A stretch of 40,251 bases of DNA from Candidatus Methanophagales archaeon ANME-1-THS (GTDB taxonomy: Archaea; Halobacteriota; Syntropharchaeia; Alkanophagales; Methanospirareceae). The stretch covers positions 1-40,251 of the forward strand of contig RXIE01000129.1 of NCBI GenBank assembly GCA_004212135.1, in the 5' to 3' direction. Each line of letters begins with the position of its first letter. The first letter of the stretch is position 1. The notes beneath the pieces are model-generated. The model saw only the letters and a program-made list of their open reading frames with translations, did no database searches and was not told the DNA's origin. Position numbers and translations under genes: made by a program. Shown in pieces: positions 3,001 to 30,524 of the stretch.

Positions 3001-5596
3001 ATATACCTGTTCTGGTAGAGTCTCCATTATTTCTTAACCCTGATTTATTTATACTGTTGTTATGTGAATAATCAAAAGAGATTCCTCTGATTTCATTATC
3101 ATTAATTTCACAATTGATGATCTTACTTGAATTTGTTTTTGAATTTATAACTGTAATATTCGTTGAATTGTAGACCGCTATACCCGATAGAGCATTGTAT
3201 GCTGAAAAAGTAGAAATCGAAGAATCTTTCGTGTTATACAGGAGAACACCATGCGAGTTCGCGTTAAATCCGAAGCCTTCAAGTGTGATGTTACTGCAAT
3301 TGATGCACGCGAAAAAGTCTGCATTAGGCAATGTTGTTGAATTGAATATCTTATTAGATTCATTCTTTAAGTAATAAATCTTAAGCCCATTAACCGTATT
3401 CGATGTATCAATATCCAGGTCAAAGTCATCATCAGTAACTCCTCCCCAGTGGCCTTCATAATTTCCTGGATCAATGTAGAAATTGTATGTATTGCTTGAT
3501 ATTGTATTATTCCTCAGCGTTAGATTAGTTGAATATGCATCAGCTGATGATGACCATATTTCTATACCAGTGTATTTATATTTCACTGTATTATTGGATA
3601 TTATTAAGTTGCTTGCATGATTGATTTTGATGCCAGCATCATCCTTTTGTATTGGCGTTATTCCAGAAATTCTGTTGTTCATGATTTGGTTGTTATCAGA
3701 ATCAACCCTTATACCTCCATAACCCAACAGTTCATTTCCAGAGATGATGTTTTGCTCAGCATAATTATCTATCATCACCATCGGCATAGAATCACTTATA
3801 TTTTTCAGAAATGTATTGTTCTCAATTCGGTTACCAATCGCATGTTTATAGCTCAGCCCTTCAATAGCAATATATTTTTTACTATACCCGCCTTCTATAA
3901 AAATGTTAGAAGTGATAGTGTTATATTTAGATCCTTCCAGCTCAAGATAAGAAGATATGAATGTGTTATTCGCGATAAGATTTCTGTCAGAACTAGATAT
4001 TATATAGCCCTTTACAATAAATACACCACTTTGGTTGAATATATTGTTCCTTATTATATTGTCAGTTGATTCATGATCCGTAATCTGTGTGCAATCCCCA
4101 AGCCCGGAAACAAGGTAGGTTGTATATCCAACTTTTATTCCTGATTCAGGAATCGAGCCTATGGGGCATGGGCCAGAATAGCCGGAATTATTGATGTAGA
4201 ATCCTTGAATAATATTGCCATTAGATTTAAGAGTGAACCCACTGCCTGTTCGATTTGCATTCACCACGGGGTTCTCAACTCCCGTGATGTTCAGGCTCTT
4301 ATCCACAATGACATTCTCAACATAGGTGCCATTGCACACGATAATCGTGTCGCCATCCATCGAGGCATTCACGGCGTCCTGTATTATGGTGAAATTGGCG
4401 CCGGGGCACTGCACTTTATCGTCATCGACAATCCATATCACAGGATTTCGTATGGTGGTGAAGTCTCCAATCGAATTGTTTGAATACAGACTCGTGTTAT
4501 CCACCCGATAGGAGAAAACAGAGTAGTAATAAGTGGTATTGGCGAGCAAGCCAGAGAGCGTTATAGAAGGAAGTTGGGTATTATTATCCCATTCGGACCA
4601 TGACGCTGAGGAGAGATCGGGATTGAGACTATAGAGGATCCGGTTATCCGCTAAAACATTTGTCTGCCAGCTTATTGTTATGCTCGCATTGGTTACATCG
4701 CTCTCCTGAACGTTGCTGATCGAAGGTGGGAAAGGAGTTTCGAAAAGCATTGGGTAGTAATCATATGAAGATATCGAACAGCCCTCACCTCCATATATAT
4801 CTGATTCCGATAAAATATGATAAGGTTCATCTCCGATACCATCCCCATTTGAATCATCTCCCGTGTAATCATCCCAGTAGTTACCCGTATAGTTATTGTA
4901 AACCATCCCTCGGTAGATATATTCTCTTATTTCAGTAGAATTCCATTGATTCACACCGCATTCAATAGCATTGTGGGAATTAGCCCCAAAGCGATTCAGA
5001 TAAATCAAGTTGTTGTAACACCTTGAAATCATAATACCAGTATTTCCATTTGCAATTGTATTATTGATGATTGTGTTGTTAGATGAAGAATCAAATATGT
5101 AGATCCCATCTACAATATTTGTTATCGTGTTGTTTTCTATGCGGCTGAAATTTGCAGATTCAAGCTGGATGCCACCATAAGTATTAAAGATAATGTTATT
5201 TGAGACGGTTGTGTAGTTTGAATATTCAACATCTATACCATCTCCATCAGAATTTCCACCTTTAATCGTGAATCCAGTTATGTTCACATAATCCGCATGG
5301 ACCTTAATAACATCCTCGTTGATATCGAGAGCTTGAATTATGCAGTTTGAGGAGCCATTCTCAGATCTCAGCGTGAGACTCTTAGTTATCAGAATATTCT
5401 CGCTATACGTTCCATCACGTACGATAATAGTATCTCCCCCACCTGCTGCAGATATCGCAGTCTGGATATCCGAGTAATCATCAGGCACGTAGATCTCTGC
5501 AGCGGTGCATATCCCAATACCCGCGGATAAACCAATAAAGAGGAGCAGGCTGCAGGTAAGTACAATCTGTCCTTCCACGCTTTTTATGGGATACAT
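2..5596 (-). CDS. Large secreted/cell-surface protein (>1860 aa, 3' end outside window): signal peptide, two NosD/CASH-like parallel beta-helix blocks, FN3-like and Ig-like domains, uncharacterised C-terminal half
   Basis: Manual translation from ATG 5596: MYPIKSVEGQIVLTCSLLLFIGLSAGIGICTAAEIYVPDDYSDIQTAISAAGGGDTIIVRDGTYSENI. Beta-helix cap motifs GNYWDDYTGDDSNGDGIGDEPY (~4880-4820) and GGNYWQDYTGMDTTGGDGLGDTEIPY (~2765-2690). The same frame is still open at the left edge (...PPRDPNIEITLDPERVSC). Absence from the ORF track is consistent with no in-window stop. Confidence 0.9.
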   Translation of the reverse strand, partial: MYPIKSVEGQIVLTCSLLLFIGLSAGIGICTAAEIYVPDDYSDIQTAISAAGGGDTIIVRDGTYSENILITKSLTLRSENGSSNCIIQALDINEDVIKVHADYVNITGFTIKGGNSDGDGIDVEYSNYTTVSNNIIFNTYGGIQLESANFSRIENNTITNIVDGIYIFDSSSNNTIINNTIANGNTGIMISRCYNNLIYLNRFGANSHNAIECGVNQWNSTEIREYIYRGMVYNNYTGNYWDDYTGDDSNGDGIGDEPYHILSESDIYGGEGCSISSYDYYPMLFETPFPPSISNVQESDVTNASITISWQTNVLADNRILYSLNPDLSSASWSEWDNNTQLPSITLSGLLANTTYYYSVFSYRVDNTSLYSNNSIGDFTTIRNPVIWIVDDDKVQCPGANFTIIQDAVNASMDGDTIIVCNGTYVENVIVDKSLNITGVENPVVNANRTGSGFTLKSNGNIIQGFYINNSGYSGPCPIGSIPESGIKVGYTTYLVSGLGDCTQITDHESTDNIIRNNIFNQSGVFIVKGYIISSSDRNLIANNTFISSYLELEGSKYNTITSNIFIEGGYSKKYIAIEGLSYKHAIGNRIENNTFLKNISDSMPMVMIDNYAEQNIISGNELLGYGGIRVDSDNNQIMNNRISGITPIQKDDAGIKINHASNLIISNNTVKYKYTGIEIWSSSADAYSTNLTLRNNTISSNTYNFYIDPGNYEGHWGGVTDDDFDLDIDTSNTVNGLKIYYLKNESNKIFNSTTLPNADFFACINCSNITLEGFGFNANSHGVLLYNTKDSSISTFSAYNALSGIAVYNSTNITVINSKTNSSKIINCEINDNEIRGISFDYSHNNSINKSGLRNNGDSTRTGIYSITPVGLYFYESNNNIICTNNITGTGTRQKYGIYLSSSNNNTIYNNYFNNTINAYDYGYNNWNISKTPGTNIINGPYLGGNYWQDYTGMDTTGGDGLGDTEIPYNSSGEIRNGGDYLPLTNVAPDYTPPAIYVVSPVEGGRYTAPYVYLEVYSPDPDVYRWWYSLNSGANVSFTPNTTISGLTNGDYHLKVYVNDTPGNINSSTVNFTVSIPPAAWVGGGGDGEGYIIEEEPLEEVIEPVFKILITNPEENKFYSERGLVLSFISPLPLRRASYVLDQNEPEIISVAPFATPGTKVINRLLLGSHRIIVNGEDYYGRRGKGEVEFEIIPLTLGEVDAAGTRTSPRFIDDAAFSFYGRAVDYTLKFEAKGEVTIDIYVNGYYRDGMRSYGNLPSALIYSFQPSLSYQTYEIPISYAHITEDAENIISFISKNAETGGAKDWEVKNVSLIPALPFSFPQIRVFTFDKAISEHGSMIPLVKIDGIMNESDYNVYIYLLTPDGKKRYYPDWSGEEKPINTYYLRTNYYGRLPAILEFNNSFNPGTYMLVGTLTEANSVSPLSLSTDKMYYSNQTSVKIYINRETFADNQTIVIEHMLTGNATENGTLILSLENPRGERVYLPMRSARASGREYIPIKSDYFIALEETVDNNWKEGIYVVRSNLYSDDGDLIAEDIETFDVCRKQATISGVYWRHESDNDTSAFLLSRIRLIDFYTMEILEKEITGDHGSYSLNASPGTYFLTGECASKNGRLYTIPLILVNLKCGEVVQQNLILEYLGEIDPEWLGISSRNKASTSGFSASATLLLDENKWPLRLSDGSRTCSKPKVAVLVSLSEEAAELYLADLGERTENITPEMLKRGLSIKVAQYLRSVSPGVEIFSYGEIMGALEEVKEFLAENPGANPDLAKNSSARQIEYVYSVKIGAFGLHDYSIESHLIERENALVVHPTSQFSSHVSDLDAELDRMVRSLGNIEPIIKAHETTHPVPPRDPNIEITLDPERVSC

Positions 5597-6109: not shown

Positions 6110-7100
6110 ACCCTCTAGTGCTGCTCACCAATTTTTTGGCTATGTTCTTCTTCTCGTTACTTCAAGATGCCAACGAACAGATCCACCACTTCTCGTTACT
6201 GAAATAGGCGAGGATATTGTGTGCACAGAAATAGAGCTTCATGCCCTTTTCTTTCGCTTTCCGATAGTAACACTTGAGCGACCGTTTCTCCGCGTTCCCG
6301 AATGGTCTTTCTCACAGCTTTCTCCGTCCGTATCTCTCCTTATTCATGGCGTATTTCTCCATATACGCGCGTCTCAGCGCACCCCGAGCTTCTACTCCCT
6401 TCGGCTTTATCAGGATCTCCAGCTTTCGCGCTTCAGCATCGCGGTAATTTGCCCTGTCATCCAGGCGTTCCAACGCCTTACCCAGCCATTCCTCCGGTAT
6501 CTGGCTGTAAACGTAGTGCAGCTCCGAATCACACGGTGTAGAACCATCCACCATGCAATACTCCGTGTCCCGCAATTTCCGTTCCAAATCACTGAACGGC
6601 AAGACGCCCTTGCAGAGGAGGACTGCTATCATCAGCTTCCAGTCATACGTCCTGGGCCTTCCCCGGGATTTGGAAGGCATGGGCATTCCTATTTCATCAA
6701 TAATCTCCTCAGCAATCCCGAGCATCTCCGTGAATGAGGGTTGAGCGTCCTGCACCTGTCCCCTGAAGGGTCTATAGGTCCTTATACCCCACGGGCGCTC
6801 TTTTTCACTTCGCAAAGGGTTTCGTTCCTCGACGTACGTCCGCTGCACTACTTCGGCAAATGCACCATCCACCAATCCTGCAATTATCGCTTCTTCTGAC
6901 GTTTGTACCTCAAAGAGGGCAAAGAACTCGCTGGGGATCATGATCGAGGGGATGTCCTGTCTGCATAAAGAAAACAACTGCTGTTCTCTCACCATTCCCC
7001 TGTAAAACCAGGTGCAAAGCGATTTTTCACTATAAAGGCAAGATCGCACGTTCTCAATGAATTTGCATTCCATCAAAGGAATATATTGTCAATAAAACTT
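6110..7100 (-). mobile_element. Degraded insertion sequence (IS4/IS5-like DDE type); boundaries approximate
   Basis: Contains the transposase pseudogene below. Lies in a non-coding gap between the surface-protein gene and the housekeeping block. No convincing terminal inverted repeats found by eye. Confidence 0.6.
6162..6995 (-). pseudogene. Transposase pseudogene (IS4/IS5-like), internal deletion plus in-frame stop
   Basis: N-terminal KSRGRPRTY...TPCDSELHY helix-turn-helix region typical of DDE transposases. C-terminal Y-x2-R-x3-E signature YGRRKL*ERPFG is interrupted by TGA at 6312-6314 and continues in frame (NAEKRSLKCYYRK...FCAHNILAYF). The segment carrying the first two catalytic Asp appears missing between LERLDDR and ANYRD. 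Likely start ATG 6995 after AGGGGA. Confidence 0.75.
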
Positions 7101-9362: not shown

Positions 9363-10106
9363 ATGACCGAGACCAAAGACGAAGTGGCAACGAAAAAGGA
9401 CTTTGAAGAACGGCTGGACCGCTTGTTGAATCGTGCTGATGCGTGTAGTAAGTCGGTAGAAGCCGAATTGGGCAGATTAAAGAGTATAAAGGGCGAACTG
9501 AACGCACTCGTGAAGGAGTCGAGACGAATAAAGCTGAAGTTGAAGGAGGAGCATGAGTTCAGTGAGGAAGAACTTGAGGAACTGAGCGATACGATAGAGA
9601 TTTTGGAAGAGACGTTTGAACCGAAGCGGAAAAAAGCGGAAGAGGTATTGAGAGGAAAGGAGGCTGAGTATTTAACCTCGTTACAATACCTGAAGGCGGA
9701 ATTCGAGAACTATAAACGGAGAGCAGAGAAGGAGAAGCGGGAGTTTGGCGATTATCTGCTTGAAGGCTTTATAAGAGACTTGTTACCCATCAAAGACGCT
9801 TTAGAGGTCGCCATAAGGCATGCAAAAGAGAATGAGCAATCTGAAGGTCTGCTCAGGGGAATGGTGAGAGAACAGAAGCAAATCACTGAGCTCGTAACAC
9901 GGGAGGGGCTCGAGGAGATACAAGCTGAGGGACTGCAATTCGATCCGTTCAGGCACGAAGTGGTCTCAAGGCAGGTGGTTGAGCATCATCCTGAGAACAC
10001 GGTGATCGAGGTGCTGAGAAAGGGCTATCTGTTCCGTGGCAAGGTTATAAGACCCGCAATGGTGAAGATAGCGATCAAGGAGCAGATTGAGGGGGGCCAC
10101 GAATGA
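9363..10106 (+). CDS. grpE: Nucleotide exchange factor GrpE with long N-terminal coiled coil
   Basis: LQYLKAEFENYKRR, LLPIKDALE, FDPFRHEVV, NTVIEVLRKGYLFRGKVIRPAMVKIA. Confidence 0.93.
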   Translation: MTETKDEVATKKDFEERLDRLLNRADACSKSVEAELGRLKSIKGELNALVKESRRIKLKLKEEHEFSEEELEELSDTIEILEETFEPKRKKAEEVLRGKEAEYLTSLQYLKAEFENYKRRAEKEKREFGDYLLEGFIRDLLPIKDALEVAIRHAKENEQSEGLLRGMVREQKQITELVTREGLEEIQAEGLQFDPFRHEVVSRQVVEHHPENTVIEVLRKGYLFRGKVIRPAMVKIAIKEQIEGGHE

Positions 10107-18143: not shown

Positions 18144-19223
18144 TCACTCTGGCAGTTTTAATTCTTTGATATGCTCCTCTCTCTTCTTCTTGAACTTGAT
18201 GAGATAATCAATCTCGTCCATCACGACCTTTTCGCCAAATTCCGCAGTTCCCTTCTCTCTGATAAAAGCCATAACCTCCTTTGCATTCTCATTCCGCACA
18301 ATAATGGTTGAAAAGCCCGCTTCGCTTCCAACGCTCCCAACCGAGGCATCGCTTTGTACCGCAGTGAAGTCAGTACAGAAATCACAGCCCTTCGCCACTA
18401 ACCCGCGCTCCTCAAACTCCGCCATTTTAATCTTCCGCTTCTTCTCCGCGCCCGCCACCGTGACGTACATGCTGCCCTTACTGATGTTCGTCTTGAGTAT
18501 CTTCTCGATCTCAATACCCTTCTCGTCACGAAGGAACTTCATAAGATCGTTATAATGGAAATTTTCAGTGCAGAAGAGACCCACCACGAGCTTCACCTTC
18601 TCCTTGAATACCGGGAACTCCTGCTGCAGTTTCCGTATCCCTGAGATCATACAGGGCGTCCCCACAACGCCAACCCCTTTCTTCGTGAACCGAATAGCCT
18701 CCTTCAATGCGGGGAGAATACCTGCAAAAACATACTTCGTTCCACCAAGGGTTCCAACACCCACTTGTTCTGGGTATCGCACGTGGAAAATGCTCGTCTC
18801 CCATTTCTCATTCCGATCAACAAATAAACCCTGGTCAATCATCCCCATATCTATCGCGGATGCAATGAGTTCAGTGGCCATCGCACCATCCTGACCTTTG
18901 AACCGCTTTGATTTCGCAGCAACAATTTCGATATAGTTCCCTAAGCCACTCGGCGGTTCGTAAATGAAGCGCGGACAGACCCGCACACAGGCGCCGCAGT
19001 CAAAGCAGTTCTTCTCAAAATCAGGGAAACCCACGATATCCTCGTCGGTTACAATTAATCCGCTCGGGCAGATCGAGACGCAGGTCAAGCAGCGGCTGCA
19101 TAAGTTCGTATCGATCACGACCGCCTTGAGATTCTCGAAAAACAATTTATCCTTCAGCTTCTTCTCCGGGACTTTTACTTCCCATTTCGATTCGCCCAGC
19201 TCTTCTTCTGCGGGAGTTGCCAT
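18144..19223 (-). CDS. fqoF: F420H2:quinone oxidoreductase subunit F (FrhB family, F420-binding input module)
   Basis: Two CxxCxxCxxxCP motifs, GQDGA, TKY, VGTPC, GLFCTENF, CDFCTDF..DASVGSVGS. Start MATPAEE (19223) after RBS GAGG; last gene of the operon. Confidence 0.9.
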   Translation of the reverse strand: MATPAEEELGESKWEVKVPEKKLKDKLFFENLKAVVIDTNLCSRCLTCVSICPSGLIVTDEDIVGFPDFEKNCFDCGACVRVCPRFIYEPPSGLGNYIEIVAAKSKRFKGQDGAMATELIASAIDMGMIDQGLFVDRNEKWETSIFHVRYPEQVGVGTLGGTKYVFAGILPALKEAIRFTKKGVGVVGTPCMISGIRKLQQEFPVFKEKVKLVVGLFCTENFHYNDLMKFLRDEKGIEIEKILKTNISKGSMYVTVAGAEKKRKIKMAEFEERGLVAKGCDFCTDFTAVQSDASVGSVGSEAGFSTIIVRNENAKEVMAFIREKGTAEFGEKVVMDEIDYLIKFKKKREEHIKELKLPE

Positions 19224-19228
19224 ATGTA

Positions 19229-19963
19229 TCACTTCCTCACCAGTCTTAATATTTGCATGGAGCATTCCTTAACGCATAAACCACATCCAGTGCACTTCTC
19301 AGCATCGATCGCCATCTTGACGATCAGCCTCTCCTCATCTTTTATCGAAGAAACCGCGCCACTTTCGCAGACCTTCTCGCAGACCTTGCACGCAATGCAA
19401 CTCGCTCGATCGACGCACTGGCTCACCATGGGAACACCCTGCGATGGTGCAATTTCCACAATAAGATTGTCTCTGCCTTTTGTCCGTTTCAACGAGAGAT
19501 CCTCGGTGTCTATGACATAGTCGACAAAGACCTTATCCTCACGAATGATCTCCGGTGGTTCAACCATCTCCTCGGTCAGTGTGAGCATCTCCTCCATGGT
19601 CCGGTATGCCACATCATGGATCTTTGTGGGCTTTAACGCGCCGCCCGGGCAGCTATCGACACAGAAATGGCAGAAGATGCATTTACCATAATCCAGGGTG
19701 GGGTAATACCGGTTGCTGGGTGCTTCCTTCATCCAGATCGCATTCGCCGGGCAGATGAACGAACATTGAAAACAACTGATACAGCGCTCAGGGTCAAAGA
19801 GAATATAGCCTCTGAAACAGTCCGGCCACCTCCTCCGTTCCCGCGGGTAATGGGTCGTTATGTTCAATGGCAGTGCTACTTGCTTTGCCGCGGTTGACAG
19901 AGCAGACAGGTGATACTTGAGTTTGTCTTGCAGATTGTATTCCGGTGTTCCAACTTTCTTCAT
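19229..19963 (-). CDS. fqoI: Fqo subunit I (NuoI-like) with extra C-terminal ferredoxin domain
   Basis: TTHYPRE..FRG, CISCFQCSFICP, CIFCHFCVDSCP, plus CIACKVCEKVC and CTGCGLCVKEC. ATG 19963 overlaps the fqoH stop. Confidence 0.9.
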   Translation of the reverse strand: MKKVGTPEYNLQDKLKYHLSALSTAAKQVALPLNITTHYPRERRRWPDCFRGYILFDPERCISCFQCSFICPANAIWMKEAPSNRYYPTLDYGKCIFCHFCVDSCPGGALKPTKIHDVAYRTMEEMLTLTEEMVEPPEIIREDKVFVDYVIDTEDLSLKRTKGRDNLIVEIAPSQGVPMVSQCVDRASCIACKVCEKVCESGAVSSIKDEERLIVKMAIDAEKCTGCGLCVKECSMQILRLVRK

Positions 19964-21123
19964 AGTACCACTCCTAAGACAATTGACCATGCGACGGCGA
20001 TGAGTCCTAAGGTAAGCATGGCGCCCCATCCAATTCTCAGGCCCTGGTCGAGTCGGTACCGCGGATACACGCCGCGGAGGTTAACCATGACCAGCAGAAT
20101 GATCAGGGTCTTTATCACGAACAAAATCGCATAATACAGGTCACCCAGAAGCGGAGTCACGTACGGAATCGCCGGGCCACTTCCCGCGCCGAGGAATAAC
20201 ATCGTCATGATCGCACTGAGCACATACATCTTCTCGTACGCCATCACATACGCAAGCCCGAATGCAATGCCCGAATACTCGATGAATGGTCCAAAGGCCA
20301 ATTCCTGGTCTGCTTCCGGGATCTCAAACGGTAACCGCGCGGTAGCCATCACCGCAGCGACGAAGAAGGTGAGCGCGGCGAGGGGATTGAGGATAATGCC
20401 CCAGTTCCACCAGGAGGTTTGTGCACTCACGACTCCAACGGTGTTCGAAGTTCCGTATAAGATGACCATTGCGAGGATTGCGATGATAAACGGAATCTCG
20501 TAGGCGAAATACATGAACGCCTCTCGTACCGTACCGATGAATGCAAATCGGTTGTTTGAGGACCAGCCGACACCGAGGATGAAGACCGGCATCAAGCTTA
20601 TCAGAGCGATCATTAGCTGGAGTGCATACTCGCTTTCTATAGGAACAAGTGTACGGCCGATGGTACCCGCATTGATAAACAGGAGCGGCAGCAGCACGGG
20701 GAGGAAATAGAGGAACGGGAACTGCAAGAAATACGGCTTGTGGGCCTCCTTATGGATGATTACCTCCTGACAGAGGAATCGGAGAGAATCGGCGAGTAAC
20801 TGGATGCTGCCTCTCGTGCGTGGCGCGATTTCACGAGGACCAACGCGCCACTGCATCCGTCCCACTAACTTCCGTTCAAGCCAGGGGAGAACGAGGAGCA
20901 TGGTGCCGAGTGTCCCGAAGCCCGGGATGATGAGTAAGATAAATATCGGTTTCCAGAGTATGAAGGCGATGAGGTACCGTATGATGGGAATACCGAGCAG
21001 GAATGCAACGATATTCCCGATCACAGGTATCTTGAGCACGAAATTGTAGATGATGGGATAGAGTAAGGGGATGTTCACCTGCTCCGCAATCATCAGGTTC
21101 ACGAGACCGCTTATATCAATCAT
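19960..21123 (-). CDS. fqoH: Fqo subunit H (NuoH)
   Basis: WLERKLVGRMQWRVGP, ARLPFEIPEADQELAFGPFIEYSG, YPRYRLDQ. Confidence 0.93.
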   Translation of the reverse strand: MIDISGLVNLMIAEQVNIPLLYPIIYNFVLKIPVIGNIVAFLLGIPIIRYLIAFILWKPIFILLIIPGFGTLGTMLLVLPWLERKLVGRMQWRVGPREIAPRTRGSIQLLADSLRFLCQEVIIHKEAHKPYFLQFPFLYFLPVLLPLLFINAGTIGRTLVPIESEYALQLMIALISLMPVFILGVGWSSNNRFAFIGTVREAFMYFAYEIPFIIAILAMVILYGTSNTVGVVSAQTSWWNWGIILNPLAALTFFVAAVMATARLPFEIPEADQELAFGPFIEYSGIAFGLAYVMAYEKMYVLSAIMTMLFLGAGSGPAIPYVTPLLGDLYYAILFVIKTLIILLVMVNLRGVYPRYRLDQGLRIGWGAMLTLGLIAVAWSIVLGVVL

Positions 21124-21138
21124 TGCTCGTCACCTCAC

Positions 21139-23466
21139 CTACCTATCCGCCTCCGGCGGGAAGTACCCGAAACTACCATAAACTGCCCAGAAGTCCGCAT
21201 ATCGTTCACCTTTGACCGCTTCCATGAATCCACGCAGGTTCATCCAGCAGGGGCTTATTACCCGCACACGGTACGGAACATTTGACTCGCCATCGCTGAT
21301 CAGCGAAAAGAGCAACGTGCCTCTCCCCGCTTCAGTAAGGCACGTCCATTCACCACGCGGCAGTACCAGGTTACCAAAAACGCGGAAGAAACTGCCCTTG
21401 ATATCACTCGCTGCCTCTTTATATTCGCCAAGGATCGCATCGCTCAAAATGGGGCCTTTGATACCTCGTACCGCATCCCCGGCCTGCTTTATGATCTTAA
21501 CGCTCTCCTTTATCTCTTCCAGCCTGCCCAGGAACCGTCCCAGACAATCGCCATCGTCGCCCGTCGTGACTTCCCAATCGAGCTTATCATACACCTCATA
21601 GGGCGACACTTTCCTGATATCATGGTTCACCCCGGATGCCCTCAGGAATGGTCCAACCATGCCGCACCGGATTGCATCCTCCTTCGTCAGCACCCCTACC
21701 CCCTTTGCCCGCGCCACGGTTACCGGGTTGGTCACGAAGATATCCTCGAACTTCTTCATCCGTTTATGGACTGCAAAGGTGATGTTATCAATCATTTTGA
21801 GCACATCGTCTGGAATGTCTCTCCGTATCCCACCAGGGACGACGAACGAAGGACCGCTTCTCGATCCCGTGATTCGCATCAGCGCTTCAATGATCATCTC
21901 ACGGATCGCCATGCAATACATGAACCCGGTCGTATGTCCAAAGAAGAGTGAGAAGATACCCGAATCGTAATAAAACGCTTCGATCCGCGAGAGTTCAGCC
22001 ATGATCGTCCGCAAATACTGTGCTCGTTCTGGAACTTCAATCCCGAGCGCCTTCTCGATCGTTCGCACATACCCCAGGTTCATATTCACCGGGTCATTGA
22101 TCGCCAGTCGCTCGAATAGCGGAATATTCTGGATGTATAGCTTATTCTCCGCGAGCTTCTCCATAGACCGATGCACAAATCCCGGTTCGGGGATCGCATC
22201 CACAATGACGTCGCCTTTTATTCTGAATGTCACCCGGAGATGCCCACTGCCCGCGTGATGAGGCCCTATGGGGACTACAATCTCGTCACTCTCGTATGCA
22301 TCTTTAATAAATTCTTCCCAGATCGGGACATAAAGATCCTTTGGCGGCTCGATGGGAACCATGAACTCAGGAGTCACATCCTTTTCAAACACGTATCGTT
22401 CCTCCGGGATCTTGAACTCTTTCCTCAAGGGGAGATCCGGTGTGTCGGGAGCAAGCAGGAACTTCTTGCCCATCCAGGTATTGCCCTCAAACCAGACCCC
22501 GAAGAACTCGTGCATTTCCCGTTCGCAATAATTCGCGCTCTCCCAGACCGAAGTAAGGCTTGGGATCTTCGGGTCTTTCATCCCGATCTCAGTGAAAATG
22601 GTGACGAGAACCGGCATCAGCGCCTCGACACTATAACTCGAAGCGGTATACTCCACAATAAACTTCCGCTCGTGGGGCACTTCGATCACATTCACGCTCT
22701 TCACGTGATCCAGTTGCATCTGATCCCGGAGTTTCCGGGCGACTTCCAACAGGTTTACCGGCGTGGTTCTGATCGCTATACGGTCCTTGCCGGTAATCGT
22801 TACGGATTTATAAAGCCCGTTAAGTTCTTTTTTGATTGTATCTGCCAATTCCTTCCCGAAATCCCAATCTACCTCCTGTTTAACATCCACTTTGATTGCC
22901 GGTGTGGGGGCATAGAGCTTGGGCGAGGTAGGCACCTTTCGCTCCTCCAGTTCCACGAACGGCAACTCCACCGTCTTAAATTCGATCGTCTTTCGGTCTA
23001 TGCCCATTATCTTATCTTGCAGCGCTCTCACACCTCGTAAAAGGGCTTCAGGAGTTATTGGACATCCCGGAACAAAGAAATCAACCGGAACGATATCAGA
23101 AGGATGGGTGATATTATAACTGTTCCAGAATATCCCGCCTCGTTCTCCACAGGCTCCTATCACGTTCACAAACTTCGGATCCGGCATCTGCCCATACACG
23201 AATTGCAACGCCCGTGCCATCTTCCTCGTTATCGTCCCCTCAATAATGATGAAATTCGATTGCCGCGAAATGCCCAGGTTTAACGTGATAGGAGCCTGTG
23301 GAGAACGAGGGCAGGCAAATGCATGAGCGAGCTCAACGCCGCAGCACGAGGTGATGAAGTGGCACGGCCATAAACTCCATTTCGCAGCCCATTTTTTAAA
23401 CGGTGCAAGCGGTCCTGATTCGAGGAATTGTATATGCGCGTTCTTATTTTCCATTTTTGTTCTCAT
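21139..23466 (-). CDS. fqoBCD: Fqo fused subunits B-C-D (NuoBCD)
   Basis: NuoB: KWSLWP..TSCCGVE, GACG, VPGCP. NuoC: ANYCEREMHEFFGVWFEG, PLRKEF. NuoD: GPHH, GFVHRSMEKLAE, VPERAQYLR, PYRVRV, PPEADR. No NiFe-binding CxxC pairs. Confidence 0.92.
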   Translation of the reverse strand: MRTKMENKNAHIQFLESGPLAPFKKWAAKWSLWPCHFITSCCGVELAHAFACPRSPQAPITLNLGISRQSNFIIIEGTITRKMARALQFVYGQMPDPKFVNVIGACGERGGIFWNSYNITHPSDIVPVDFFVPGCPITPEALLRGVRALQDKIMGIDRKTIEFKTVELPFVELEERKVPTSPKLYAPTPAIKVDVKQEVDWDFGKELADTIKKELNGLYKSVTITGKDRIAIRTTPVNLLEVARKLRDQMQLDHVKSVNVIEVPHERKFIVEYTASSYSVEALMPVLVTIFTEIGMKDPKIPSLTSVWESANYCEREMHEFFGVWFEGNTWMGKKFLLAPDTPDLPLRKEFKIPEERYVFEKDVTPEFMVPIEPPKDLYVPIWEEFIKDAYESDEIVVPIGPHHAGSGHLRVTFRIKGDVIVDAIPEPGFVHRSMEKLAENKLYIQNIPLFERLAINDPVNMNLGYVRTIEKALGIEVPERAQYLRTIMAELSRIEAFYYDSGIFSLFFGHTTGFMYCMAIREMIIEALMRITGSRSGPSFVVPGGIRRDIPDDVLKMIDNITFAVHKRMKKFEDIFVTNPVTVARAKGVGVLTKEDAIRCGMVGPFLRASGVNHDIRKVSPYEVYDKLDWEVTTGDDGDCLGRFLGRLEEIKESVKIIKQAGDAVRGIKGPILSDAILGEYKEAASDIKGSFFRVFGNLVLPRGEWTCLTEAGRGTLLFSLISDGESNVPYRVRVISPCWMNLRGFMEAVKGERYADFWAVYGSFGYFPPEADR
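23138..23310. repeat. Perfect 29-bp inverted repeat inside fqoB (23138-23166 / 23282-23310)
   Basis: CCTCGTTCTCCACAGGCTCCTATCACGTT and its exact reverse complement AACGTGATAGGAGCCTGTGGAGAACGAGG, 115 bp apart. Confidence 0.95.
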
Positions 23467-23508
23467 CTCACCTCTCTATCTCGTTCGTGTAACGTTTTAT
23501 AGACTCCG

Positions 23509-23865
23509 TTAGCCTTTTGACTTCGCCATATCGAGCGTTATCGTATAGCCCACATAGAGCGCGGGCAGGAGGAGCAGGAGTGAGAGCAGCAGGAGTACCA
23601 TGAAGCTCGAACTCGGGTACGCGGAGAAGAGGAGCAGGATGACCACAATTGGTTCCACAGCCATAAACAGGAACATAAACCCGAAATACTGCATGGGGAG
23701 TGTATATTTCGGGAATTTCATCGGTGGGTTCCCTGCTTCCCATCGCATCGTTTTTATCTCTGTCAGGTTATACCTCGGCAATACCCGTACGAGCAGGAGC
23801 AGAATCATATCTACCAGCACGCAAATAAGGACCAGAACACCGATTATTAACGCATTTTCTAGCAT
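23509..23865 (-). CDS. fqoA: Fqo subunit A (NuoA)
   Basis: Three TM segments, K..RWEAGNPP, QYFGF..LFMAVE; start MLEN after GGAGG. Confidence 0.9.
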   Translation of the reverse strand: MLENALIIGVLVLICVLVDMILLLLVRVLPRYNLTEIKTMRWEAGNPPMKFPKYTLPMQYFGFMFLFMAVEPIVVILLLFSAYPSSSFMVLLLLSLLLLLPALYVGYTITLDMAKSKG

Positions 23866-23881
23866 TTTTCGTCCTCCTCGC

Positions 23882-25144
23882 TCATATCGCAATACTTATA
23901 GCCTGAGCAATGACCTCCATACTTCTAAAGAACCAGTCTGGCAGGAATGTAATTAAGGTTATGATTACGACGGCAACGCAGATGAAGTTGGTAAGATTCG
24001 CTTTCCAGCCAACCCCGAGTTCTCGTGCGAGCCGCAAATAATACGGAATGGATATTGCGGAATTCAGGACCATGAGCGCAACGAGCCAGAAATACTCAGC
24101 TTTGACCAGCGAGAAGAGAATGAAGAGCTTGCCCCAGAACCCGATGAGCGGTGGGAGACCGATGAACGAGAACGCAAGCAGGTACATCGTGAGTGAAAAA
24201 GCTCCTTCGCCCTTGATCGCATTGAAGAACCCAATCTTGCCCACCGCGTTTGCAAATAACATGAGCAGTGCTCCAGTCAACGCGAAGTAGAAGAATTCCG
24301 GCTTGATGATCACGACCGCGCAGGCTAACAAATAGCCCATGTTCGCCACGGTCGAGTAGGCGAGGATTCGTGCATGCTCTTTTGAGGTCAGTGCGCCTAT
24401 ATTACCGGTGAACATGGAGATCGCAGCAAGGACCGCGGTGAAGAGGGTTACCGAAACGGTCAGGGAGTTAGATGTGCTGATCAGTATCCGCAACGCGATG
24501 ACAAACGGCACGATCTTTGCGAGCGATGCGATGATGGACATCGGGATGGGATCGGCACTGGTAAAGACATCCGGAACCCACTCGTGTAACGGCGCGACGC
24601 CTACCTCAATGCTCAGTCCTAAGATGAGCATCACATAGCCGAGTATGTACAGCAGGCCATTAAATGCGTTTTTAGTATACGCTAAGGTAACCGCACCGAT
24701 TAAGAAGAGAACCGTAGCGAGTACCATGAAGGTGATATACTTGATACCCACCTCGACGTTTGTCCCCCCTTCTCGCACCATAACCAGGATGTAGGTTGGC
24801 ACGGAAACAAGGACGAACGCTGCGAGTATCAGAGCAAGGTTGTGTGTCGTAAAGATGTAGAGGGTTACCAGTGCCATCAATGCTACCAATCCGTAGTCCA
24901 CACCCTGAATCACGCTCTTGATCACTTTAAGCGAAACCAGGTTGAGGATACCGATGGCAAACACAAATGCGGTATAATAAATAAGAGCGGGTATGAGGAG
25001 TGTTACGGCTGCAGATGCCAGTATAAGCGCAGCGATCGCGCCGTAGAAGCCCAAATCGCGGTACTTAACGGAAAAAGCAGAGCAAAGCGTCAGGATTACT
25101 AAAGCACCGAGCAGCATCAGCACGGGCATTGAGAATTCGATCAT
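23882..25144 (-). CDS. fqoN: Fqo subunit N (NuoN, antiporter-like)
   Basis: VGIKY, APLHEWVPDV, RILAYSTVANMGY, IGLPPLIGFWGK, YYLR. Start 25144 overlaps the fqoL stop (25150 also possible). Confidence 0.9.
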   Translation of the reverse strand: MIEFSMPVLMLLGALVILTLCSAFSVKYRDLGFYGAIAALILASAAVTLLIPALIYYTAFVFAIGILNLVSLKVIKSVIQGVDYGLVALMALVTLYIFTTHNLALILAAFVLVSVPTYILVMVREGGTNVEVGIKYITFMVLATVLFLIGAVTLAYTKNAFNGLLYILGYVMLILGLSIEVGVAPLHEWVPDVFTSADPIPMSIIASLAKIVPFVIALRILISTSNSLTVSVTLFTAVLAAISMFTGNIGALTSKEHARILAYSTVANMGYLLACAVVIIKPEFFYFALTGALLMLFANAVGKIGFFNAIKGEGAFSLTMYLLAFSFIGLPPLIGFWGKLFILFSLVKAEYFWLVALMVLNSAISIPYYLRLARELGVGWKANLTNFICVAVVIITLITFLPDWFFRSMEVIAQAISIAI

Positions 25145-27096
25145 AGCCATACGCCTCCTATCGCGACTACTACGAGCAGGATCATGACGAGCCCGAGCAC
25201 AATATTGATGTATCGGCTGAGATAGCCTGTTTGAATGCCTCGGATTCGCTTCGAGATCGTGCCGAATAAGCCGGGTATCGTCACGGTATTAAAGAATCCG
25301 TCAATTCCACGATTTCCATAGTCCTGAACCAGATGAGAGACAAAGAAACCTATCTTCGGAATGATAAAATCATTCATAAAGGGCAGATACATACGGTCGC
25401 CGAAGAACGCGCCGAGCTTGTTTAGCGCATGTATCTGGGGTCGGTAGAGTGCAACCATATACGCGAGTAAGGCCAGTATTCCAACGCCAAAGGAGATGGT
25501 GATCGTGCCGTGCTTCAGAACGGATCCCGCGGCAACGAATTCATGGCCTTCTTCACTTGTGAAGATGATATAGAGCAAGACGAAGAGCACCGAGACCATC
25601 AGAGAGTACCCCACCTTCATCAATCCCCCGCCATGCGTATGCTCGTGGTGTGGTTTCTCGCCTTTAATAAAATTCAAAGCAAGGAACTTCGCCATTATCC
25701 CGGAATAGACTACCGAGGTGAGCACGAGCAGGATGAGCGGCAAATAGCCCACCTCGTGGAAGAGATGCTCCATAACCTCGTCCATCGCCGACTTCACCCA
25801 GTATGCGGTAAGCGGCGGTATGCCAACGAGGAAGGTGGTCGCGACGATCGTAACGATAAAAGCAGGGACCATCTTCTTGCCAAACTCGAGACCACCGCTT
25901 AAGAACCTGCTATGCGTGGCATGGATCAAATGACCACTGACGAGGAATAAACTCGCTTTCGCAAATGCATGGACTGCCATGTACCAGAACGCAACGAGCA
26001 CGGCGAAATTCATGTGCATTTCGCCAACCTCAACATCAACCCAGTAGGATGCGGCGGCTGCTGCGAACATCAGACCGATACTGGACATCGTGGATGCTGC
26101 GAGCAGAACCTTCCGTTCGAGCATACCAGAGCCAGAGAGCGCACCATACAATCCGGAAAGCAGTCCAATAAAGAGCACAAGGAGATACACATACTCGAGC
26201 CCATGCACGCCGTGCAATGTCCATGGCGCAATATACCACGTGAGTTTGATGAATACAAACGCCCCCGCAGCCACCATGGTCGCACTGTGCAGGAGTGCAC
26301 TCACCGTGGTTGGGCCGGTCATTGCGGTCATGAGCCACTCACTGAAGGGTACCTGAGCAGACTTGGTGAAGAGCCCCATGAGCAGACAGAGGAGCAGAAT
26401 TATCGTGCCGCCCGCACCAAGTGTTTCAAAGAGCGTGCCCCACTCGATCTCCGAGATATTGAGCGTTGGTGATAATGCCCATATCGCAGCGAGTGCTAAG
26501 AACATAGGAACATCGCCGAACCGTATGGTGGAGATCGCGCGCCATCCGCCGAAGCTTGGTGGCCAGCTCAGCTCGAGCGGTCCCACCTTCCTGCCCGCTT
26601 TACCGACATAGCTAATATCATTGTCGTCCCTGAACCAGTGCCCGATCAATCCCCACGAAGCGGCGCCCAGTCCCTCCCAGCCGACAAAGAGCAGGAATAA
26701 ATTGTCGCTATACACGACGAGGAGCATCGATGCGGTGAAGAGGTTGAAGAAGAACCAGTACCAGCTCGGCCGGTAATCTCCCTTCATGTAGTCCAAGCCG
26801 TAAATAGCAATAAAGAAGGCTATAAGTGCGGTAATAACGCCCATATACCTGCTCAGATAGTCAGTAATAAGGACGATGTTTATGCCGAATTCAGGAATCC
26901 AGGGGTAACTGAACTGCTGGTTCTCGGGTAGAACGAAGAGGATATACAGGCTCATGATCACTGAGACGAAGATCCCGAAGACCGAGAGATAGGGTAGCTT
27001 CTCGGTCCATGCTTTACTCTTGTAGGCGAGTACAATGGGAACACTGCTCAGCACAGGTGACAGGAACAGTAACAGGAATATGAGCCACTCGTTCAT
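25141..27096 (-). CDS. fqoL: Fqo subunit L (NuoL, antiporter-like)
   Basis: GWEGLG, TKSAQVPFSEWL..AMTGPTTVSALLHSATMVAAG, HAFAKASLFL, C-terminal IQTGYL. Confidence 0.93.
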   Translation of the reverse strand: MNEWLIFLLLFLSPVLSSVPIVLAYKSKAWTEKLPYLSVFGIFVSVIMSLYILFVLPENQQFSYPWIPEFGINIVLITDYLSRYMGVITALIAFFIAIYGLDYMKGDYRPSWYWFFFNLFTASMLLVVYSDNLFLLFVGWEGLGAASWGLIGHWFRDDNDISYVGKAGRKVGPLELSWPPSFGGWRAISTIRFGDVPMFLALAAIWALSPTLNISEIEWGTLFETLGAGGTIILLLCLLMGLFTKSAQVPFSEWLMTAMTGPTTVSALLHSATMVAAGAFVFIKLTWYIAPWTLHGVHGLEYVYLLVLFIGLLSGLYGALSGSGMLERKVLLAASTMSSIGLMFAAAAASYWVDVEVGEMHMNFAVLVAFWYMAVHAFAKASLFLVSGHLIHATHSRFLSGGLEFGKKMVPAFIVTIVATTFLVGIPPLTAYWVKSAMDEVMEHLFHEVGYLPLILLVLTSVVYSGIMAKFLALNFIKGEKPHHEHTHGGGLMKVGYSLMVSVLFVLLYIIFTSEEGHEFVAAGSVLKHGTITISFGVGILALLAYMVALYRPQIHALNKLGAFFGDRMYLPFMNDFIIPKIGFFVSHLVQDYGNRGIDGFFNTVTIPGLFGTISKRIRGIQTGYLSRYINIVLGLVMILLVVVAIGGVWL

Positions 27097-28547
27097 GGTA
27101 CTATACCTCCCATACCCATCAATGGCCAGATCACCGATTTAAGCCCGGGAATCAATGCGGTCGAGAGCGGCGGGAATACCAGCAAGACTGAGGTGATACC
27201 GATTAGAAAGAGTGGTACGTAGAGGTATCTACTTATCTCCTTTCGTGTGGTATCCTTGGGCTTGCCATAGAATACCTTCCGTATGGTGTAGAATCCATAC
27301 CACACTGAGAGGATGAACATGAAGATAACCGCCAGGAGGATTGCTAAACTCCCGGTAGAAACGCCGAACGTTTCCACCACACCACGCAATATGAAGAATT
27401 CACCGAGCATGCCAACCGTTAAGATCCCGCCGAGGTTCAGAAATCCGACCACCGCAGCATTTGAGATCGCCGGTATGGAATCGTGCAAGCCGCCCATCTG
27501 CCGAACATCACGAAGACCATGATGCACGGCGATGATCCCGCCCGCGCTCGAAAACAGGATTGACTTACCGAAGGCGTGCGACATGTACTGGATCACCACA
27601 CCGACCAGCCCAAACGGACCGAGACAGAGTGCAGCGAGGATATAACCCATCTGTGAGACGGTGGAGTATGCTAACAGCCGTTTGAAATCTGTCTGTTTGA
27701 AGACCGAGAACCCGGCATAAATGCTTGAAAAGAGCGCGTACCCAAAGATGTAGCTGCGATAGGTCACGATGAATGAGTAATCGATGAGTGCGATTCGCAG
27801 CAGAACATATCCAGCCAGACCAACGGTTAATGGGCTCAGCAGTGCACTTAATGGTGTTGGAGCTTCTGCATGCGCCCAGGGAAGCCATACATGGGGTCCT
27901 AACACGGGGAGCTCGATGACCATGCCCACGAAGATGAAGGGCCAGGCATATCGACCCACCGTCTCGATATATTTGAGCGCGAGTGTGTCATTGTTAATAC
28001 CGATGATGAGGAAGCCAGCGAGCGTAAGAACACCGGCTACTAAGCTCCAGATCAGGTACAATTGACCAACCCATCTCCGGTTTCCATAGCCATAGAAGTA
28101 GATGAGGAGGAACGCGGTGATCAGTGCGATCTCGAGGAAAATGTACAGGAGGATGAGATTGCCACTGTACACGAGCCACAACATCGAAGCGGCATAGAGA
28201 TCATACAGGAAGATATATTTCCTGAACTCGCTCTCAACACTGAGCTCCATCTCCACAAATCGGTGCTCCATATAGGGGAGCGCAAAAAGACCGACCATCG
28301 CAGAGACGATACAAATCGTCAGTCCAAATGCATGCGATATAAAGTCAGCACTGAGATAGAGCTCGCCTATTGGTGCTGAAAAGGTCATTAAATGGACCTC
28401 CGCGCAGCCGTAAAAGAGACACGAGAGGATGGCAAAGAACGGCAGCAGGAAGAACGACACGGTAAGATGGGTCGCGGCCTTTGGTTTCAAAAGTGGTGCT
28501 AAAACCGCTGCGAGGAGCGGCAAAATCAGAAAGTAGAGCAGCATCAT
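27093..28547 (-). CDS. fqoM: Fqo subunit M (NuoM, antiporter-like)
   Basis: YIFLE, HVWLPWAHAEAPTPLSALL, DFKRLLAYSTVSQMGY, HAFGKS, MGGL, GEF. Confidence 0.92.
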   Translation of the reverse strand: MMLLYFLILPLLAAVLAPLLKPKAATHLTVSFFLLPFFAILSCLFYGCAEVHLMTFSAPIGELYLSADFISHAFGLTICIVSAMVGLFALPYMEHRFVEMELSVESEFRKYIFLYDLYAASMLWLVYSGNLILLYIFLEIALITAFLLIYFYGYGNRRWVGQLYLIWSLVAGVLTLAGFLIIGINNDTLALKYIETVGRYAWPFIFVGMVIELPVLGPHVWLPWAHAEAPTPLSALLSPLTVGLAGYVLLRIALIDYSFIVTYRSYIFGYALFSSIYAGFSVFKQTDFKRLLAYSTVSQMGYILAALCLGPFGLVGVVIQYMSHAFGKSILFSSAGGIIAVHHGLRDVRQMGGLHDSIPAISNAAVVGFLNLGGILTVGMLGEFFILRGVVETFGVSTGSLAILLAVIFMFILSVWYGFYTIRKVFYGKPKDTTRKEISRYLYVPLFLIGITSVLLVFPPLSTALIPGLKSVIWPLMGMGGIVP

Positions 28548-28864
28548 ACTTGATCACCTCCTATAGTAATCACCGCGGTGTGAATATCCTTTTTCTGCCG
28601 GTCAAGTATCACAATTGCCGATATCAAGATTAACAGCTCGCCACTGCTCGCGAAGATCGTGATCACCGCAATACCGAATGCGGTATGAGCAGCAACTGAG
28701 AAGAGCGGAATCAATGCCATAAACACCGCACCAAACATCATCTCCAGTGATATAAGGAGCCGGATCACATCTTTACTCGAGATCGCTGTGAGGTAGCCCA
28801 CGAATAAGATTGCAAAGGACGCGGCATAGAGCACTGATATACTCGCGACATCAAGAGCAGCCAT
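28544..28864 (-). CDS. fqoK: Fqo subunit K (NuoK)
   Basis: 106 aa, three TM segments, LISLEMM and SSGELL conserved glutamates. Confidence 0.88.
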   Translation of the reverse strand: MAALDVASISVLYAASFAILFVGYLTAISSKDVIRLLISLEMMFGAVFMALIPLFSVAAHTAFGIAVITIFASSGELLILISAIVILDRQKKDIHTAVITIGGDQV

Positions 28865-29347
28865 TCAACTCCTCCCTCCTATCCCCATCTTTAATACGGA
28901 CAATAACAAGAGAATAACGAGCGCTATCAGCAGTATAACGACTAAAAAGTATTCGGTCGTGGATAGAAAATTCATCAGTTCAAATTGGATCTCGCCGGGC
29001 GATGCTGCCGGCGGATTGAAGATCGGGTAACTGTAAATGGAGAAGCCGATAATGAACGCAGCGAGAGCCACTGGCGCAGCCCAGAATACCGACACCTGCC
29101 TTACCGGTTCAGATCGATAGGTTGCTGCAAGCGCTACGGTGACAATACCAATCGCACCGACAAAGATAAACACGATCAATACGAAGACTGGTTGAAGATT
29201 GAAGAGAGCGTAAACCGCTGCAACAAAAATTAAGGTCCCGGACATGTAGAGCGAGGAGTAGAAATTATCTTTGCTCACGAGAACCCCGAGCGAGAATAAG
29301 ACGGCGATGCCTGCAAGCGCTGACAGCAACAGCACATCTGCACTCAT
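28865..29347 (-). CDS. fqoJ: Fqo subunit J (NuoJ)
   Basis: Five TM segments, KDNFYSSLY, IFVGAIGIV; first gene of the operon. Confidence 0.85.
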   Translation of the reverse strand: MSADVLLLSALAGIAVLFSLGVLVSKDNFYSSLYMSGTLIFVAAVYALFNLQPVFVLIVFIFVGAIGIVTVALAATYRSEPVRQVSVFWAAPVALAAFIIGFSIYSYPIFNPPAASPGEIQFELMNFLSTTEYFLVVILLIALVILLLLSVLKMGIGGRS

Positions 29348-29350
29348 GGA

Positions 29351-29392
29351 ATGACAATTTTTGTCATCTCTTTAAAAAACTTTCGTTTTTTT
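29351..29392 (-). promoter_or_regulatory. fqo operon promoter (BRE + TATA) with palindromic putative operator
   Basis: Minus strand AAAAAACGAAAG-TTTTTTAAA about 24 nt before the ATG; perfect ATGACAA-N3-TTGTCAT palindrome at 29351-29367. Confidence 0.65.
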
Positions 29393-29519
29393 TCAGATGC
29401 CCCAGGATCACAGGTTGTCCACGCCCTGTAAAGGGGGATAAAAAAGAATTCGGCATAACTCGTCTGAGCTTCAGCGTGAACAGAGCGCTCACGTGCGGAC
29501 GAAAGAGGGCTTCTCTTTC

Positions 29520-30524
29520 TTATATAAAGGTATTCGAGACGTGGATTTTTATTCGTTCCATAGAAAACTGGGCGATGAACTGGAGTTTCTGCTTCGCCTC
29601 CGAATCTTCGAGTCCCGCAATACAATTCCGCGCTGTTCGTACAAACTCTTCAGCGAGCTGAAGTGCGTACTCGATTGAACCTGCGTCGACCAAAATGCTC
29701 CTCACCCGGTTGATGTCAAAGATGCCAGGGTCTCGTTCTCGAGACAGAATCGCTTTTATATACTCCTTTTCAGATTCGTTTGAATGATGTAACGCGTGGA
29801 TGACGAGCAATGTCTGCTCACCATTTTTAATGTCCAATCCCACAGGCTTGCCAGTATTCGCCGGGTCACCGCAGATATCCAGGATATCATCTTGAATCTG
29901 GAACGCAACCCCTAGGTTCTTACCATAGGTACGCAGATTCTCGATTTCCACTTCGTTTCCGCCTCCGAGTACCGCACCCGCTTCCGCGCTCGCCATAAAA
30001 GTCGCAGCCGTCTTCAGTTCAGCGACTTCCATGTACGAATGCAGGTTCGCCTCTTGCAAGGTTCGTAACGTGAACTCCAGGTATTCCCCCATCGCAATAT
30101 CCGCCACCGCATTCGAGACCAGGCTCACGACTTCCGGGACACCGCAGCGTGCAAGCATCTCGCACGAGAGCCCGAATAAAAGATCACCGATAATAATCGC
30201 CTTCTTTTCACCGTATCTCGCGGGATTAGACGGATTTTTTCGGCGAATGTCGTTCTCATCGATGATATCATCATGTACCAGAGACGCATTGTGAAGCAGT
30301 TCAATCGCTATGGCGGTCGATAGCGCTTTTTCACGTGAACCGCCCACGGCTTCTGCTGAAAGAAGGCATATGATAGGTCTCAGTCGCTTGCCGCCGGTCT
30401 CCTGTATGTAGGTCAGCGCGTCGCGTAAGATCTCATGGTTGCATTCGAGCAATTTTTGCTCGATGACCTCACCTAACTTCTGATTGAAATACAGTACCTC
30501 CTCGTGGAATAGCCGCTCCTTCAT
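29520..30524 (-). CDS. All-trans polyprenyl diphosphate synthase, probably longer-chain (>C20) type
   Basis: GGKRLRP, FARM HNASLVHDDIID...RR, KTA, SARM FQIQDDILD, GKPVGLDI; Ala at position -5 of the FARM. Confidence 0.9.
   Translation of the reverse strand: MKERLFHEEVLYFNQKLGEVIEQKLLECNHEILRDALTYIQETGGKRLRPIICLLSAEAVGGSREKALSTAIAIELLHNASLVHDDIIDENDIRRKNPSNPARYGEKKAIIIGDLLFGLSCEMLARCGVPEVVSLVSNAVADIAMGEYLEFTLRTLQEANLHSYMEVAELKTAATFMASAEAGAVLGGGNEVEIENLRTYGKNLGVAFQIQDDILDICGDPANTGKPVGLDIKNGEQTLLVIHALHHSNESEKEYIKAILSRERDPGIFDINRVRSILVDAGSIEYALQLAEEFVRTARNCIAGLEDSEAKQKLQFIAQFSMERIKIHVSNTFI

Follow-up and report, generated by a model that had tools for sequence, protein, structure and literature searches.

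An inverted copy in place of a conserved loop of the fused fqoBCD gene in an ANME-1 assembly: very probably a fold-back chimeric artefact

Does an uncultured methane-cycling archaeon lack a conserved loop of its F420H2:quinone oxidoreductase, or was its sequence altered on the way to the consensus? The question is raised by contig RXIE01000129.1 of Candidatus Methanophagales archaeon ANME-1-THS (GenBank assembly GCA_004212135.1), which was analysed over 40,251 nucleotides (nt; positions 1 to 40,251 of the forward strand, hereafter the window). An open reading frame (ORF) on the minus strand, 21139..23466, encodes a fused NuoB-NuoC-NuoD (FqoBCD-like) protein of 775 aa that is otherwise intact, as judged from the ORF and its Pfam matches, and in which a short tract (hereafter the patch) is an inverted copy of nearby sequence in the same gene. 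Taken at face value the patch describes an organism without the conserved loop, and would mislead metabolic reconstruction. It is very probably a technical artefact: amplification or library preparation would have produced fold-back (inverted) chimeric molecules, and these would have been taken into the consensus. The patch is most likely not a real biological feature, and in all likelihood the FqoB loop of the organism is normal. Whether amplification or library preparation was the molecular source, and which software step embedded the patch, are matters of inference.

A single inverted pair was found between 22500 and 24000. Its arms (23138-23166 and 23282-23310) are 29 nt long and 100% complementary, are separated by a spacer of 115 nt, and both lie inside the ORF; by our own arithmetic, (4e4)^2/2/4^29, an exact inverted match of 29 nt anywhere in 40 kb has a chance expectation of about 3e-9. 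A preliminary description of this DNA, made from the sequence letters, had given 23282-23310 as the exact reverse complement of 23138-23166 and had read the latter as normal coding sequence for NVIGACGERG. Both statements held, the first over 29 of 29 nt and the second, with this arm as donor, by translation and by comparison with relatives. The peptide of the donor arm (23138..23166, minus strand), N-V-I-G-A-C-G-E-R-G, is kept in relatives, and their DNA differs there only by synonymous or near-synonymous changes. The spacer (23167..23281, minus strand) is ordinary coding sequence, colinear with that of relatives in alignment. The other arm is translated as P-R-S-P-Q-A-P-I-T, within ...AHAFAC-PRSPQAPI-TLNLGISRQ, and has two parts. 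Positions 23282..23287 (minus strand) form a junction microhomology of 5-6 nt, part of the palindrome AACGTT, which is common to the copy arm and the original sequence; the wild-type alleles of relatives already have it, three of them with ACG TT at this place. Positions 23288..23310 (minus strand) are, by alignment, the overwritten tract of 23-24 nt, which equals the reverse complement of 23138-23160/1 and reads P-R-S-P-Q-A-P-I. The far junction, between 23310 and 23311, is without microhomology.

The codons that in relatives specify G-Y-D-G-E-R-L-G were replaced base for base, with length unchanged. The gene was searched for in 41 related genomes, of which 34 gave a match, and the window's own assembly gave one match. 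All 19 relatives' loci that were fetched have AC-G[YF]D[GM]ER[LI]G-[TA]LN between the CC pair and the RQ motif, where the window has AC-PRSPQAPI-TLN. A scan of species representatives returned 41 loci (by record title mostly Methanophagales/ANME-1-type archaea and Chlorobi/Bacteroidota-type bacteria with fused NuoBCD), 9 of which do not cover the site; the motif is present in 32 of the 32 that do (24 archaeal and 8 bacterial), some of which may duplicate the 19, and the kin in these comparisons are not independent. The archaeal form is G[YF]D[GMA]ER[LIW]G and that of the bacterial fused NuoBCD is [RK][YF]DV[SA]RFG. The GYDGERLG of relatives aligns with RYD(Q/L/M)DR(L/F)G of the mitochondrial PSST/NDUFS7 chains in solved structures, and the loop presumably has its role at the quinone site in NuoB/FqoB. 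The general pattern [YF]D..R.G is not found between the CC pair and the RQ motif of the window, where PRSPQAPI stands. The preliminary description had reported the YDxERxG motif to be absent with frame and approximate spacing kept, and the presence of the motif in 19 of 19 and 32 of 32 loci of relatives bears this out. When the DNA was aligned with that of 8 relatives there was no gap at the site, about 24 columns were replaced and both flanks were colinear, and between flanking anchors the net difference in length was 0 for each of the 4 relatives tested. A length-neutral overwrite preserves the reading frame of itself, and frame retention is no separate coincidence.

Public sequencing runs were also consulted. 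None of the 17 checked contains half of the window's words (best share 0.19), and the strain was found in none of them. Contigs of one run (X4) that are locally 95-99% identical to the window match it as far as 23287 and then read C-G-Y-D-G-E-R-L-G by hand translation; a loose end in another run (X1) reads G-Y-D-G-E-R-L-G-T-L. The patch is absent from the contigs of 4 public runs, in which only relatives are represented, so that gaps in their coverage carry no information on the window's allele. In metagenome contigs there were 0 matches to the patch junction and 0 to its flanks with a free 24-nt middle, both weak negatives from a strict exact-match scan. The preliminary description had allowed that relatives might also have PRSPQAPIT; none has it, across the loci and run contigs compared.

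A stem as long and perfect as this one, in a reading frame that is kept, might suggest a selected element, either a 29-bp hairpin in mRNA or DNA with a regulatory role in fqo expression, or an FqoB loop remodelled in this lineage. We consider this hardly credible. The stem is not conserved in any relative, including the same-genus genomes and the 95-99% identical pieces, frame retention is automatic from a length-neutral overwrite, and equivalent patches elsewhere create stops. In addition, the window loses Oxidored_q6 (PF01058) profile positions 4-37 compared with a relative, its match beginning at profile position 38-39 versus position 4 in a same-genus relative.

The same anatomy can be produced in living cells. 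A genuine short-range template-switch mutation (four-point or quasi-palindrome-like) would leave a recent, probably loss-of-function fqoB allele in the population: a nascent strand ending in AACGT would fold onto ACGTT at 23162-23166, copy about 24 nt and re-anneal in register. The four-point model describes just such a replacement of a short fragment by a nearby reverse complement (PMC5453318). The locus agrees with this explanation in that its state is derived relative to all relatives, the 5-6-nt priming microhomology is present, and outside the patch the gene is conserved and unbroken; the arms are still identical at 29 of 29 positions, and any event must therefore be recent. We nevertheless regard it, including the route just given, as unlikely. 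The motif is invariant across the archaea, bacteria and mitochondria compared and only one nuoB-like gene was found, with this query, in the assembly (~86% complete), so that the patch allele should be strongly selected against; the allele was not seen in the contigs of the 4 runs or in the exact scans of metagenome contigs. Further objections come from the rest of the assembly.

The whole assembly (G000; 2,030,246 b in 181 contigs) was scanned for exact inverted repeats with a spacer of at most 5 kb. There are 75 of at least 17 nt and 53 of at least 20 nt (about 26 per Mb). The short end of the length spectrum follows chance (72 repeats of 14 nt, 25 of 15 nt and 9 of 16 nt), and is followed by a plateau between 17 and 29 nt, where each length has 2-8 repeats and 29 nt itself has five. 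There are none at 30-34 nt, and single cases at 35, 48, 54, 58, 62 and 76 nt; five of these six (48-76 nt) are at contig ends and the 35-nt one is internal. A k-mer cause (e.g. k = 31) for the stop at 29 nt was considered and rejected, since it misfits the internal 35-nt repeat and the terminal repeats of 48-76 nt.

Relatives were sampled as controls (0.13-0.40 Mb each, not whole genomes). A genome of the same family (G010, 400,000 b) has 1 repeat of at least 20 nt; among three genomes of the same genus there are 0 in 261,316 b (G003, with none of at least 18 nt), 0 in 133,560 b (G002) and 2 in 161,006 b (G001). Pooled, the four controls have 3 in 955,882 b versus 25 expected at the rate of the window's assembly, a roughly eight-fold excess in the latter. 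A scan of this kind had been proposed in the preliminary description, and it returned 53 short inverted matches of at least 20 nt, in an excess confined to this assembly. For an in vivo origin, a single 2-Mb genome would need some 50 events, all of them equally fresh, versus about 3 per Mb in the sampled relatives. Direct repeats were tried as a further control and set aside, being dominated by natural arrays and giving no clean comparison; in 70 direct-repeat pairs the length is 27 nt exactly, and these may belong to a repeat array, CRISPR for instance. One contig (C122) has a run of N at 4600-4626.

Sixteen of the 75 repeats of at least 17 nt have an arm flush with a contig end, in the form of tails of 17-76 nt that begin at position 1 or finish at the last base. 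The chance per arm of lying flush is about 5e-4 (362 ends in 2.03 Mb). At 4 of the 16 tails a second contig of the assembly is identical over 89-123 nt and then diverges for kilobases exactly at the tail. These pairs, each given as tail contig and alternative continuation, are C113/C110, C87/C52, C112/C181 and C116/C29, with tails of 21-26 nt and a junction microhomology of 3-6 nt; they are unjoined because one member ends in the fold-back tail, and C110/C113, C52/C87, C181/C112 and C29/C116 could be joined after tail trimming. No overlapping contig was found in the assembly for the other 12 tails. Where a tail ends a contig with nothing colinear beyond it, the underlying molecules or reads must end there. 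Terminal tails are therefore the signature of fold-back chimeric fragments and not of internal mutation, and an in vivo patch cannot account for the 16 of them, four of which have a second contig with the wild-type alternative. The combination of a dead-end tail and a wild-type path was seen at these other loci and not at the fqoB patch itself. The longer terminal fold-backs (C161 37333-37408, C61 3709-3770, C172 1-58, C130 10627-10680 and C3 1-48; 48-76 nt, with spacers of 267-3313 nt) form a length class separate from the 17-29-nt group.

The 38 internal repeats of at least 20 nt have a median spacer of 284 nt (range 18-2851). Thirteen internal loci were compared with same-genus or same-family genomes, and 6 could be aligned at the patch. 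At four of these (C152, C144, C56 and C50) one arm is conserved, as donor, and the other overwrites conserved sequence with a net length change of 0. The three cases inspected by eye (C152, C144 and C56) have microhomology on one side, with none at the far junction; the starting microhomology of C144 has 8 nt and that of C56 has 4 nt.

Some of the internal arms carry in-frame stops within long open frames, with at least 40 open codons on each side: C144 2577-2605, C168 5864-5892, C101 2916-2942 and C61 3036-3058. All 5 relatives compared have the C144 gene without interruption, and the apparent pseudogenes at all four places are probably false. The C61 frame resembles, by eye, what we take to be an antiporter-type (NuoL/M/N or Mrp) subunit. 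Three other candidates for nonsense patches were not retained, namely the 28-nt repeat of C73, where relatives show two reading frames meeting, and C143 and C84, which are weak (flanks of 40-83 codons) and were not counted. The patches are not filtered by selection. Mutations arising in vivo are expected to be sparse and so filtered, and here there are 38 internal patches of at least 20 nt in 2 Mb, four with stops; several such events put stops into conserved genes, a load that is implausible for a population consensus. The preliminary description had left two alternatives standing. The length-preserving inverted overwrite is upheld, the option of an artefact is favoured, and a real, enzyme-damaging replacement is disfavoured by the ~50 similar patches, the tails and the stops.

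If the patches were real, this would be an ANME-1-type population in a burst of template-switch mutagenesis, due for example to a replication or exonuclease defect, with some 40-50 fresh overwrites of 17-29 nt, a prospect to which we attach very little probability. A knock-out of the quinone-side loop of FqoB together with several nonsense alleles, and contig-end tails that represent unresolved polymorphism, belong to the same scenario and are just as doubtful. A burst of this kind in an archaeon would be unprecedented.

The patch might also be real and rare: the assembler may have picked, over the majority allele, a product of template switching or repair from a few cells, or environmental DNA that was damaged. 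At the four sites where the assembly holds both versions, minority paths did enter contigs, which speaks for this possibility. By the assembly alone it is indistinguishable from an artefact. A minority variant would, however, have to be chosen at dozens of loci, and the dead-end tails speak for molecules that stop at the tail instead of carrying an internal patch; we consider it very unlikely.

The fold-back artefact accounts for the patch as follows. The locus has an exact reverse-complement tail of nearby sequence, a pre-existing inverted microhomology, and an excess of such features specific to its data set. Because it shares its length class, one-sided microhomology, spacer range and length-neutrality with the assembly-specific patches and terminal tails, which pay no regard to reading frames, the fqoB patch is read as an embedded fold-back tail. 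During whole-genome amplification or library end-repair, 3' ends may have paired with short inverted microhomologies at a distance of a few hundred bases; once extended, they would give molecules that terminate in 17-30 bases of reverse-complemented nearby sequence. At contig ends such tails would persist in the assembly as dead-end tips. If a contig or read with a tail was superimposed on its colinear neighbour, by mismatch-tolerant merging, gap closure or polishing, the result would be a base-for-base overwrite with one-sided microhomology. In fqoBCD, priming at AACGT(G) (23282-23287) would have started a tail that copied the stretch from 23161/0 to 23138 and took the place of the GYDGERLG codons. 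The four contig pairs left unmerged have the appearance of material that did not go through this processing.

Several points weigh against this account. A single fold-back junction on its own fails to explain the return to the colinear position after 23-24 nt, and an in vivo template switch with in-register re-annealing would be length-neutral as well. The sharp cut-off at 29 nt cannot be explained by it. The account is drawn from the assembled consensus, there being no public run of the strain among the 17. The two control repeats of 20-21 nt in G001 indicate that the background is not zero. Among the alignable internal patches, C53 has a length change of zero only when two 6-nt gaps that offset each other are taken together, and the 28-nt repeat of C73, at a gene junction, shows a length difference of 2 nt next to a C-run. 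The remaining 7 of the 13 loci could not be evaluated at the patch: relatives match C85 only outside the repeat, C119 shows a complex difference from its relative, C19 and C51 have no DNA match in the relatives compared, and at C118, C100 and the 23-nt repeat of C73 the patch arm is outside the alignment or in a poorly aligned part of it.

As a matter of data quality, the assembly should be used with the warning that dozens of embedded fold-back patches scramble 6-9 residues or make false stops, and that tails are present at 16 contig ends. A simple screen, which looks for exact inverted repeats 17-30 nt long and no more than a few kb apart and makes a comparison with sister genomes, could be used on other assemblies. 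The window itself has a second exact inverted repeat (6981-7002 and 9854-9875, 22 nt, spacer 2851), which gives two unrelated, oppositely oriented genes the common peptide R-G-M-V-R-E-Q. One of these genes looks, we presume, GrpE-like, and the repeat is probably another patch of the same kind as that in fqoB.

The gene that carries the patch is otherwise an ordinary member of its operon. Pfam domains PF01058 (residues 68-149), PF00329 (234-355) and PF00346 (510-775) were all found above cut-off in the fused subunit, PF01058 (Oxidored_q6) at 65.3 bits versus a cut-off of 27. The cysteine pattern CC...GAC...PGCP is kept (C41, C42, C105 and C135) and aligns, via a relative, with the solved PSST/Nqo6 chains; we take these cysteines to be the ligands of the distal Fe-S cluster. 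The ORFs of relatives for this gene are 768-848 aa long. The context is of complex-I type: J-, K-, M-, L-, N- and A-like genes lie upstream of the fused BCD, which is followed downstream by an H-like gene, a 2x[4Fe-4S] subunit and an FrhB/FdhB-domain protein. The layout is probably that of an F420H2:quinone oxidoreductase (Fqo). The Fqo-type operon is complete and occupies 18144-30524 on the minus strand (J, K, M, L, N, A, fused BCD, H, 2x[4Fe-4S] and FrhB/FdhB-domain protein); from its domains, the last of these is likely to be the F420H2 input module. A polyprenyl synthetase gene (29520-30524) precedes the operon. Fused NuoB-C-D genes were also observed in metagenome-assembled genomes of Chlorobi/Bacteroidota-type bacteria (loci L133-L147), with 30-37% identity to the archaeal fusion.

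Compared with the known NuoB/PSST/Nqo6 family (PF01058), the window's protein has the domain match, the CC...C...C pattern and the complex-I-type operon, with B, C and D fused as in relatives. It differs in that the loop aligning with RYD(Q/L/M)DR(L/F)G is missing, from the window's sequence only.

The patches themselves may be compared with three described systems. In chimeras of phi29 multiple displacement amplification the parts are inverted, with a distance peak of 250-300 nt and a range of up to 5 kb, and the overlaps peak at 6 nt, mostly 5-8 (PMC4595205). Against these figures the present cases are alike in the use of opposite strands, in close spacing (115 nt here, with a median of 284 nt for the 38 internal repeats) and in an overlap of 3-8 nt. 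The phi29 chimeras are single junctions in reads, whereas here there is a 17-29-nt tail with a colinear far flank, and the colinear sequence on the far side of the tail means that a second step is needed beyond a junction of the phi29 type. The likeness is one of spacer and overlap statistics.

Chimeric reads from library preparation, as described in the PDSM model, are seeded at natural inverted repeats or palindromes, and their short chimeric ends escape clipping and show as clustered mismatches (PMC10908179). They likewise place the inverted complement of nearby sequence at read ends, starting from a short natural inverted repeat, and in a consensus would give a base-for-base overwrite. They differ in having been described as low-allele-fraction calls in deep human panels and not consensus errors in a metagenome-assembled genome, and some of the spacers found here (1.3-2.9 kb) are above usual fragment sizes. 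Four-point template switches (PMC5453318) resemble the present patches in leaving a perfect inverted repeat with clustered apparent substitutions. They are inherited, sparse and supported by several genomes, whereas this assembly has about 50 undecayed events, of which none is common to relatives, some are nonsense and many are contig-terminal dead ends.

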